Of a stretch of DNA of 30,931 nt, positions 16,776 to 30,511 are shown one piece after another. Position 1 is the stretch's first letter; every line of letters begins with the position of its first letter. This DNA comes from a virus (Duplodnaviria > Heunggongvirae > Uroviricota > Caudoviricetes): IMG/VR virus record IMGVR_UViG_2651869725_000007. One strand, written 5' to 3'. Both the position numbers and the translations under genes were made by a program. The notes beneath the pieces were generated by a model. The model saw only the letters and a list, made by a program, of their open reading frames with translations. It did no database searches and had not been told where the DNA came from.

Positions 16776-17184
16776 ACCCCGTCTCCCGTTATCCGGAAGC
16801 TGACAACAATAAAAAGCCACCAGTTAATTCCTGATGTCCCTGAGGCATAAACGTCATAATACCTGACTGTTATGATTGACAATAATGATAATGTTTATAT
16901 AGAAAGGTTCCCGATATGTGTTACATATCATTTCTCCACGGGGAATATCCCCACGCCAGCGCAGACTCTTTTACCCGTTCTCTTCTGCGCTGGCTCTTTT
17001 TTTATTATGCTGCTGCATTTACCTCTGGCACCAGGCTTTTTATCTCAACACCATACGTGGTACTTCGTGTAACCAATATCATAACGATTAATCGACATCG
17101 AATTTCTCCCGTGTACAGGAACAGAGTTAAAAAGCCGGAACCGGAATCAAATCACAGGATGACCATCTGCCAGTGGCTGGTCGT

Positions 17185-17212: not shown

Positions 17213-17426
17213 GAAATAAAGGGATAACGATGATAGTTTGAGAAAAACAGAAATAACACTTTTGTGGCAAAGCATGGTGCCGGGTGCCTCCCGGTGAATT
17301 CAGCCGGTGTCACTGAACCCGCGTCGGCTTGCCTATAACATAATAAATGCTACCTACACCAGTCGCCCCTCCGCACAGGGGGATTCACCATGCAGAAGTG
17401 TTTTTAATAAACAGTAAACAAAAAAA

Positions 17427-17594
17427 TCAAGCATTATGCAGGCTGTTTCTTTTTATCACCGGCCACAGCAATACCACAATGCCGCAGACCAGCACCCCAT
17501 CCGCCAGCACCGACATGATTCTGCTGGTGAAATCCACCATCACCACCAGAAACAGCAGGAGTGCAGCCACAGTCAGGCGCAGTTTTACCGTCAC
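17427..17594 (-). CDS. putative small membrane protein (55 aa), GTG start overlapping the TerB-like stop
   Basis: Not in the ORF track. GTGA start/stop overlap and a GGAGA ribosome-binding site; product VTVKLRLTVAALLLFLVVMVDFTSRIMSVLADGVLVCGIVVLLWPVIKRNSLHNA has two hydrophobic segments. Confidence 0.4.
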   Translation of the reverse strand: MTVKLRLTVAALLLFLVVMVDFTSRIMSVLADGVLVCGIVVLLWPVIKRNSLHNA

Positions 17595-18052
17595 AGGTGA
17601 TTCTCCAGACGAAGACCCAGAACACCGGCAATCTCTTCCAGCACCTTGCGCTCTTCCGGCTCAATTTCGCCGTCTGCCTCCGCAATGGCCACCGCCACAT
17701 CCAGCACATCTTCCGCTTCACGCGTATCGTGTTTCACATCCTCGATCTCACGTAACGCCGCACGACGACCAATTTTAAAGTTCGTATCCAGCTGACCGAT
17801 AATGGTTGCGCTCATCGCATTAATTTCTGACGTAAACGCGGACAGCGCTGGCTGATTACGCAGTACCTGTTCGATCTTCGCTTTCTCGGAAGCCTCACAT
17901 TCACCATCTGCACAGGCCACCAGGTATGCGGCGTTAATCACCGCCTGTGCCAGATCGCGTTTTTCAAACTTTTTAATTTCCGTTGCCGCTCTGCGGGCTT
18001 TTTTTACCAAAAATACCAAACATCGTGACGTTCCTTTGGGTGGGTGAGCCAA
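17591..18052 (-). CDS. TerB-domain (tellurite-resistance TerB-like) protein
   Basis: 153-aa ORF with two TerB-type repeats: …AAYLVACADGECEASEKAKIEQVL… and …VAVAIAEADGEIEPEERKVLEEIAGVLGL…. Confidence 0.55.
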   Translation of the reverse strand: MAHPPKGTSRCLVFLVKKARRAATEIKKFEKRDLAQAVINAAYLVACADGECEASEKAKIEQVLRNQPALSAFTSEINAMSATIIGQLDTNFKIGRRAALREIEDVKHDTREAEDVLDVAVAIAEADGEIEPEERKVLEEIAGVLGLRLENHL

Positions 18053-18192
18053 CGCCCGGGAGCGATCTGCCCACAGAGAAAGTCACACTGACCACTCCAT
18101 AAGCTCCCCCCGAAAGGCTCTGTGGTTGGTATGCGCCGGGCGTGGTGCGGATACAAAAAAGGTCCGCAAAAGCGAGCGAGGGAAAATAAGTG

Positions 18193-23189: not shown

Positions 23190-23345
23190 TTACTCCTCAG
23201 GTTCGTAAGCTGTGAAGACAGCGACCTCCGTCTGGCCGGTTCGGATTCGTACCTCGCAGAGGTCTTTCCTCGTTACCAGTGCCGTCACTATGACGGTTAA
23301 ACAGATGACGATCAGGGCGATTAACATCGCCTTTTGCTGCTTCAT
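23190..23345 (-). CDS. hokD: Hok/Gef-family membrane toxin (HokD/RelF-like)
   Basis: 51-aa product MKQQKAMLIALIVICLTVIVTALVTRKDLCEVRIRTGQTEVAVFTAYEPEE matches HokD as recalled; start at an internal ATG of the longer ORF. Confidence 0.85.
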   Translation of the reverse strand: MKQQKAMLIALIVICLTVIVTALVTRKDLCEVRIRTGQTEVAVFTAYEPEE

Positions 23346-23536
23346 AGCCTGCTTCTCCTTGACCTTTCGGTCCGTAAGAGGCAATCTATATGTGACGAGC
23401 ATATAGGGGCCTCACTTCGATTTATAGTCGGGTGGGGCTTTTATCTATCTGCCGTTGGTGTTCATGCCCAAGGCAGATAGCCTCAAGCACCCGCAGCAAT
23501 TCTACTTAACTCTGCCGTTACAGCAAGCCGTTTTCG

Positions 23537-30458: not shown

Positions 30459-30511
30459 TTTCTGGTGACGTTTGGCGGTATCAGTTTTACTCCGTGACTG
30501 CTCTGCCGCCC
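30459..30511 (+). ncRNA. dicF: DicF small regulatory RNA
   Basis: 53 nt TTTCTGGTGACGTTTGGCGGTATCAGTTTTACTCCGTGACTGCTCTGCCGCCC followed by TTTTT; matches K-12 DicF as recalled; about 175 nt upstream of dicB. Confidence 0.8.

Follow-up and report, generated by a model that had tools for sequence, protein, structure and literature searches.

A 55-codon frame on the minus strand of the 30,931-nucleotide stretch of viral DNA analysed here (the window, meaning the stretch at its full length) is almost certainly a real gene, tciB, whose predicted product is a small membrane protein of the DUF3927 family and whose start codon overlaps the stop codon of tciA, a gene of the TerB family. The pairing of a TerB gene with a small membrane ORF recurs in lambdoid prophages, P1, N4-like phages, jumbo phages and one apparent bacterial chromosome. 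This recurrence across unrelated phage types supports the proposal, made in the original prediction, that a TerB-like protein and a small membrane protein together make up a two-component membrane module. By analogy with known membrane-linked TerB proteins, we lean slightly towards TciB being the membrane partner of TciA. In the window, the two genes (tciAB) lie in the Q-dependent late region as a cargo alternative to Shiga toxin, whose slot they occupy.

Table 1 Features of the tciAB locus and its surroundings. Positions are those of the window, except in the last row, where they are those of the named records.
Feature	Position	Strand	Evidence or remark
DNA methyltransferase	19535-18477	-	
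Three tRNA genes, ileZ/argN/argO-type	18436-18193	-	
16-codon stub MFGIFGKKSPQSGNGN in the ancestral ATG frame of tciA	17973..18023	-	Translation; stop at 17973
tciA	17591..18019	-	TerB-family gene, 142 aa from the TTG start used by RefSeq
A7 homopolymer in tciA	17999..18005	-	Alignment and translations compared with A6 alleles
GGAGA, Shine-Dalgarno-like	17602..17606	-	Read from the sequence; falls in the final TerB codons (L-E-N-H-L)
GTGA overlap of tciA stop and tciB start	17591..17594	-	TGA 17593-17591, GTG 17594-17592
tciB	17427..17594	-	55-aa DUF3927 small membrane protein; GTG start, TGA stop
STnc100-family sRNA	17239-17419	-	Rfam 116.8 bits, gathering score 47; starts 8 nt after the tciB stop
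Terminator-like hairpin near the STnc100 sRNA	17211-17193		
Holin	16820-16560	-	
Lysozyme	15888-15355	-	
sok antitoxin RNA	23343-23492	-	Rfam 104.6 bits; implies a hok/sok-type locus
DicF	30460-30511	+	Rfam 76.7 bits
434-type DUF3927 locus	L006 (phage 434) 2638-3625; L004 2138-3125		TTG start, 85-nt gap

The 55-codon frame and its product

The elements named in the original prediction are all borne out on the minus strand: a GTG start overlaps the TGA stop of the TerB-like gene as GTGA, a GGAGA at 17606-17602 lies 7 nt before the GTG, and the frame runs for 55 codons to a TGA at 17429-17427. The strand reads ...CTGGAGAATCACCTGTGACGGTAAAA... across the junction of the two genes, and the encoded product is MTVKLRLTVAALLLFLVVMVDFTSRIMSVLADGVLVCGIVVLLWPVIKRNSLHNA. 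This peptide is very hydrophobic (GRAVY +1.39), and the two hydrophobic segments that had been proposed appear as hydropathy peaks at residues ~7-20 and ~33-47, separated by the polar segment DFTSRIMSVLADG. Lys or Arg residues are found at both ends, and the positive-inside rule, applied to the sequence, suggests a topology in which both ends are cytoplasmic. An AlphaFold2 model of the monomer, based on a 13-sequence alignment, consists of one unbroken helix over residues 2-54 (pLDDT 89) without a hairpin turn. In the TciB alignments A2 and A3, residues K4, D21, F22, S24, L30, D32, G33, P45 and K48 are invariant; homologues keep a length of ~50-55 aa, the two hydrophobic segments and a core of D-F-(T/S)-S ... 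(A/S)-D-G ... P..K.

TciB belongs to a family that is already catalogued. It matches Pfam PF13064 (DUF3927) with 62.6 bits against a cutoff of 25 (E = 3e-17; residues 3-51 of 55) and, over its full length, PHROG 1470, 'TciB-like' (E = 5.6e-30); no NCBIfam model matched TciB, and that library gave nothing useful for TciA. A near-identical tciB is annotated in RefSeq as the DUF3927 family protein WP_000216636.1, and the pair is labelled 'TerB family protein' and 'DUF3927 family protein' in hundreds of Escherichia coli genomes there. The names tciA and tciB in phage records come from phage P1, which supplied the founding members. The frame had been described as unlisted, which holds for an ORF track restricted to ATG starts and at least 60 aa but not for RefSeq, where it is listed as DUF3927. 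With the ORF present in Pfam, PHROGs and RefSeq and known as P1 TciB, tciB alters nothing as a gene call.

The region is rich in short ORFs, with 60 of 30 aa or longer overlapping the 4.5-kb stretch around tciB, so that the ORF taken alone is within chance and the case for a gene rests on comparative evidence. This abundance, together with the GTG start, is what speaks for the view that the 55-codon frame is a chance ORF and that the true product is the 95-aa ORF at 17434-17721, or none. The strong PF13064 and PHROG 1470 matches stand against that view, and so do the substitution patterns. In a comparison of the window with ten homologues, differences in the tciB frame were skewed towards the third codon position (positions 1/2/3: 20/8/38 against Pollock, 13/9/24 against Fostie and 9/5/18 against the allele L002); the reading frame is conserved in homologues across phages, and tciB is under purifying selection. 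Read in the 95-aa frame, the differences from Pollock are 42 nonsynonymous and 0 synonymous, nearly all substitutions are nonsynonymous against the other homologues too, and most of the more distant homologues, 434, Fostie, P1 and Pollock among them, have stops in this frame. A family search with the 95-aa ORF gave no match, and the suspicion that it is spurious has thus been substantiated. Codon usage, scored with a model trained on the long genes of the window, also favours the 55-codon frame (+0.24 bits per codon, against -1.02 and -0.12 for the other two frames). Finally, the codon aligned with the GTG is an ATG in P1, Pollock, a Pantoea prophage and several metagenomic contigs, which supports the assignment of the start and again argues against a chance ORF. 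Given this body of sequence evidence, a chance origin of the frame is very improbable.

Distribution of the TerB–DUF3927 pair

Across unrelated phage types, the tciB start and the TerB stop overlap or adjoin. The 4-nt GTGA overlap of the window is shared by JLK-2012, Fostie and Klebsiella phage 5, all of which are lambdoid; the overlap is 1 nt in P1, L012 and the Pantoea prophage, ATGA in L016 and L019, and 11 nt in L021, and the TerB gene and tciB abut in the N4-like phage Pollock. At the position of GGAGA, P1, Fostie and Pollock have GGA, which stems from codons for a conserved C-terminal L-E/D of TerB. In the Klebsiella phage 5 LV-2017 record (L011), the tciB at 2441-2596, with its GTG start and GTGA overlap, is unannotated in GenBank.

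Conservation of the coupled pair, which the original prediction had offered as a check, was upheld in both directions. An exhaustive profile search for DUF3927 yielded 143 clusters at 50% identity, nearly all of 20-90 aa, and six distant members were looked up (P0137, P0166, P0210, P0141, P0239 and P0202). The complete upstream gene is TerB in four of them (P0137, P0166, P0210 and P0141, with overlaps of 1, 4, 4 and 11 nt), that is, in all four of the informative members; P0239 has a cut TerB-like C terminus 3 nt upstream of DUF3927, and the P0202 contig starts too near the gene for its upstream flank to be informative. In the reverse direction, TciA-type TerB genes from two jumbo phages, one N4-like contig and the Pantoea prophage were each followed by a membrane ORF of 50-72 aa (4 of 4 tested). 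The order in the Pantoea prophage is Q-TerB-DUF3927-holin. The jumbo-phage ORF is a divergent DUF3927 in which the conserved Asp residues are missing, and in the N4-like contig an unrelated single-TM protein takes the place of DUF3927.

Among the long matches of the profile search, no natural TerB-DUF3927 fusion was found: P0175, P0191, P0272 and P0321 are frameshift read-throughs, partly translated out of frame, and P0127 and P0177, in which the N-terminal sequence ahead of DUF3927 is unrelated, look chimeric. A third gene conserved in the manner of P1 tciC was also rejected, because the ORFs downstream of tciB differ by lineage and an sRNA follows in the window. One pair (L016, 2558-3162) lies on a metagenomic 2-Mb contig that looks bacterial-chromosomal, where it is flanked by an AIPR abortive-infection protein and, at its opposite end, by an SbcCD-like set of an SMC_N/AAA_23 ATPase and a metallophosphatase; the setting resembles a defence island.

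Within E. coli, tciAB is a very common prophage cassette, which in EHEC-type prophages sits in the slot of the stx genes. A megablast search with region 17300-18100 found it in 1,293 of 5,426 complete E. coli genomes, and tciB-like DNA occurs in 1,342 of the 5,426, often in several copies per genome. The tciB-like places (~4,545) are more numerous than the tciA-like places (~3,199). Some solitary tciB copies are truncated remnants. TerB is absent beside DUF3927 in phage 434 and a large subset of E. coli prophages; in the 434-type arrangement (Table 1) the gene ahead of DUF3927 encodes an unrelated membrane protein of 247 aa with multiple passes (PHROG 1521), and the nucleotide sequence resembles the window only from ~35 nt into tciB onwards, a pattern that points to a recombination junction within tciB.

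The genomic slot and the A7 run of tciA

The window belongs to a lambdoid E. coli prophage, and its minus strand carries in order the methyltransferase, the tRNA genes, tciA, tciB, the STnc100 sRNA, the holin and the lysozyme. The first tRNA gene is called Met (CAT) by ARAGORN and Ile in RefSeq. In an Stx2a phage, the same methylase and ileZ-argN-argO genes are followed by stxA-stxB and then by sequence that matches the window just downstream of tciB; the Stx phages in the collection match the window only downstream of tciB. The two loci are thus alike in their flanks (methyltransferase, ileZ-argN-argO, cargo, STnc100 region, esterase and holin, with the esterase missing in the window) and differ in their cargo, which in the window is tciA-tciB and not Shiga toxin. 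It is these flanks, shared with the Stx2a phage, that place tciAB in the stx slot. In related prophages, the esterase is nanS-p, a sialate esterase of the SASA family (~1.85 kb) located between tciB and the holin; it is absent from the window, where homology to L001, L005, L006 and L007 ends at 17074 and resumes at the holin (~16843). A 2026 preprint relates STnc100 to PasD prophage sRNAs and reports TerB near PasA/PasC loci. A promoter or terminator specific to the cassette did not emerge, as consensus sites were not enriched over shuffles.

In P1 and JLK-2012, tRNA genes flank tciAB too, with Asn and Thr upstream in both. The presence of tRNA genes beside tciAB in the window and in these two phages suggests a mobile tRNA-plus-tciAB cassette. 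Elsewhere the cassette is found in early regions: the P1 copy belongs to the ban operon, which the C1 repressor controls, that of L019 comes after a Cro-like gene and that of L021 before a primase, and in Pollock the surrounding genes carry annotations for replication and nucleotide metabolism. The module is therefore not tied to the timing of lysis.

The partner gene tciA encodes a soluble-looking TerB-fold product with a hydrophobic-polybasic N terminus and acidic ADGE repeats. It matches Pfam PF05099 (TerB; 55.8 bits, cutoff 24.4), PHROG 632 and the structure of Klebsiella pneumoniae TerB, 2JXU (E = 1e-7, query residues 14-137). TciA-type TerB partners form a distinct subfamily in which the N-terminal M-(F/L)-G-x-(F/L)-x-K-K is invariant; further marks are the motif E-(N/K)-(R/K)-D and conserved acidic positions.

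Near the 5′ end of tciA, the window has a run of seven A residues (A7) where other alleles have six. The A7 version, compared with A6, puts the ancestral ATG (18023-18021) out of frame and leaves a 16-codon stub (Table 1). From this ATG, L002 (A6) and L003 read MFGIFGKKARRAA, and alleles with A6 (L002) or other sequence at this place (L003 and JLK-2012) share the reading MFGIF(G/K)KK.... RefSeq, in records with an identical 5′ region, starts tciA at the TTG at 18019-18017, 4 nt downstream of the first base of the ATG, which gives MVFLVKKARR.... The A7 allele recurs in O157:H7 and other genomes, with at least five exact records; for the A6 version in the same 99-nt background, three exact records were found among the ranked matches, with A7 in those ranked next, and a 1-nt gap in this 100-nt query still falls within the band of at least 99% identity. 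Translation of TciA in the window may be impaired by the frameshift, and a +1 slip on the A7 run would restore ancestral TciA exactly. The tciB gene keeps its own GGAGA and an intact frame. It is conceivable, if doubtful, that the A7 run works as a slippage or phase switch through which TciA is adjusted relative to TciB.

Candidate roles and known systems

Ribosomes that finish tciA, or that bind the GGAGA in its last codons, would start at the GTG, so that both proteins would be made together. TciB would insert in the inner membrane with both ends in the cytoplasm, according to the positive-inside rule, and serve there as the membrane partner of cytoplasmic TciA; the two proteins could in this way recreate in trans the 'membrane helix plus TerB domain' layout of DjlA and the pairing of TerB with TerC. 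We infer the translational coupling and a physical TciA–TciB complex from the architecture of the genes, and the partnership itself from analogy, namely with the DjlA layout and the TerB–TerC interaction and from the weak matches of TciA to DjlA and DUF533. As to function, the pair might protect or sense the energised inner membrane during phage development, a guess that fits the colicin and phage-exclusion phenotypes linked to ter operons; we give such a specific membrane-protection role little credence. In P1, tciA, tciB and tciC were nonessential in a CRISPRi screen (PMC10695390), and tciB is transcribed during infection (PMC8201110).

Several observations count against a partnership, among them the lack of a natural TerB-DUF3927 fusion in the long matches and the possible impairment of TciA translation in the window. 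If the hairpin topology is right, the most conserved segment of TciB would face the periplasm, away from TciA; the single unbroken helix of the AlphaFold2 model argues against a simple anchor; and the jumbo-phage versions lack the conserved Asp residues, with an unrelated single-TM protein in one N4-like phage. The persistence of DUF3927 without TerB in 434 and many E. coli prophages, behind the 247-aa multi-pass protein, and the excess of tciB-like over tciA-like places also weigh against it, and they favour a different reading, in which TciB is an effector on its own: a membrane-active peptide, acting in superinfection exclusion, as a modulator of holin timing or as an ion leak, with the TerB protein as its regulator, its antidote or an unrelated co-cargo. 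The frequent position of tciB just upstream of the holin in lambdoid phages and the invariant Asp-Gly within its second hydrophobic segment would suit such a peptide. However, wherever a distant DUF3927 gene had an informative upstream flank, a TerB gene was tightly joined to it; the TerB partners make up a subfamily of their own with a conserved N terminus, and truncated genes and obvious remnants are among the copies that lack TerB. Moreover, TciB is found far from the lysis genes in P1 and N4-like phages, and the window has a separate holin. We consider it unlikely that TciB acts alone.

A further alternative concerns this prophage in particular, in which the cassette could be decaying cargo, with tciA inactivated by the A7 frameshift and tciB carried along without function. 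The 16-codon stub left by the out-of-frame ancestral ATG speaks for this, as do other observations: the neighbouring nanS-p of related prophages is missing here, with a homology break at 17074, of the five differences from L001 that lie in tciA and tciB four alter an amino acid, and pseudogenised and truncated copies occur elsewhere. Yet what remains of tciA is an intact 142-codon frame from the TTG, a start that again yields a hydrophobic-polybasic N terminus, and tciB, itself intact, has copies of 100% identity in many O157:H7 genomes. The A7 allele itself is found in many genomes, its exact records (at least five) standing against three for A6, and slippage on the run would offer a way back to the ancestral protein. 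Decay is thus a less likely account still than a solitary effector.

Returning to TciB as the membrane partner of TciA, the reading that we prefer, it is possible, although doubtful at this level of detail, that the pair forms a self-contained and widely mobile phage module in which a 55-aa peptide tethers or gates a TerB-fold sensor and which keeps the membrane energised or excludes competitors. If so, one module would serve lambdoid, P1-like, N4-like and jumbo phages, with pore-forming colicins, superinfecting phages and abortive-infection triggers as the competitors, and in EHEC-type prophages it would be an alternative to Shiga toxin in the same slot.

Among known systems, the closest is that of P1. 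Its TciB is 50% identical over 54 aa, with the core VDFTS...LSDG...WP..K, and is likewise encoded directly behind a TerB homologue with an overlapping start; tRNA genes adjoin the cassette in both. P1 differs in having a third gene, tciC (35 aa), which is absent from the window, in an ATG start with a 1-nt overlap in place of GTG with a 4-nt overlap, and in the location of the cassette in the C1-controlled ban operon, whereas that of the window lies in the Q-dependent late region.

The class II holins and pinholins of lambdoid phages resemble TciB in their small size and their pair of hydrophobic segments, and they too are encoded close to the lysis genes of the late region. TciB has no sequence relationship to them and is also encoded in early regions far from lysis genes. 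TciB was rejected as a holin, as it has no holin-family match and a distinct holin ORF lies upstream of the lysozyme gene. In a search of the PADLOC defence models, TciB had no match and TciA a marginal one of 15.2 bits.

The TerB protein of ter operons interacts with the membrane protein TerC, according to work cited in PMC11003894. The likeness to this pair would lie in the combination of a soluble TerB-fold protein with a partner integral to the inner membrane; TciA matches 2JXU over almost its entire length. The membrane components differ, however, TciB being a 55-aa peptide with no detectable similarity to the multi-pass TerC, and TciA differs from ter-operon TerB in its distinct N-terminal M-F-G-x-F-x-K-K. 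None of terZ, terA, terC, terD and terE is annotated within ~3 kb of near-identical loci in RefSeq, and the locus was rejected as a terZABCDE operon, its neighbours being tRNA genes, a DNA methylase, an sRNA, a holin and a lysozyme.

In DjlA, a transmembrane helix is followed by a cytoplasmic TerB-like domain (PMC11451591). TciA matches the DjlA model PRK09430 of NCBIfam with 28 bits (E = 1.5e-6) against a cutoff of 162, in the TerB-like stretch only, and DUF533 with 23.5 bits, below the cutoff of 29.6; with both scores below their cutoffs, the relation is one of architectural analogy and not of membership. A role for TciA as a DjlA co-chaperone was rejected, given the low score and the absence of a full-length match. 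Unlike in DjlA, there is no J-domain here and the membrane element and the TerB domain are encoded by separate genes. A minimal two-gene TerB system of about 143 aa and 55 aa would offer a far simpler experimental handle on the function of TerB than the ter operons, with their 6-7 genes, or DjlA.
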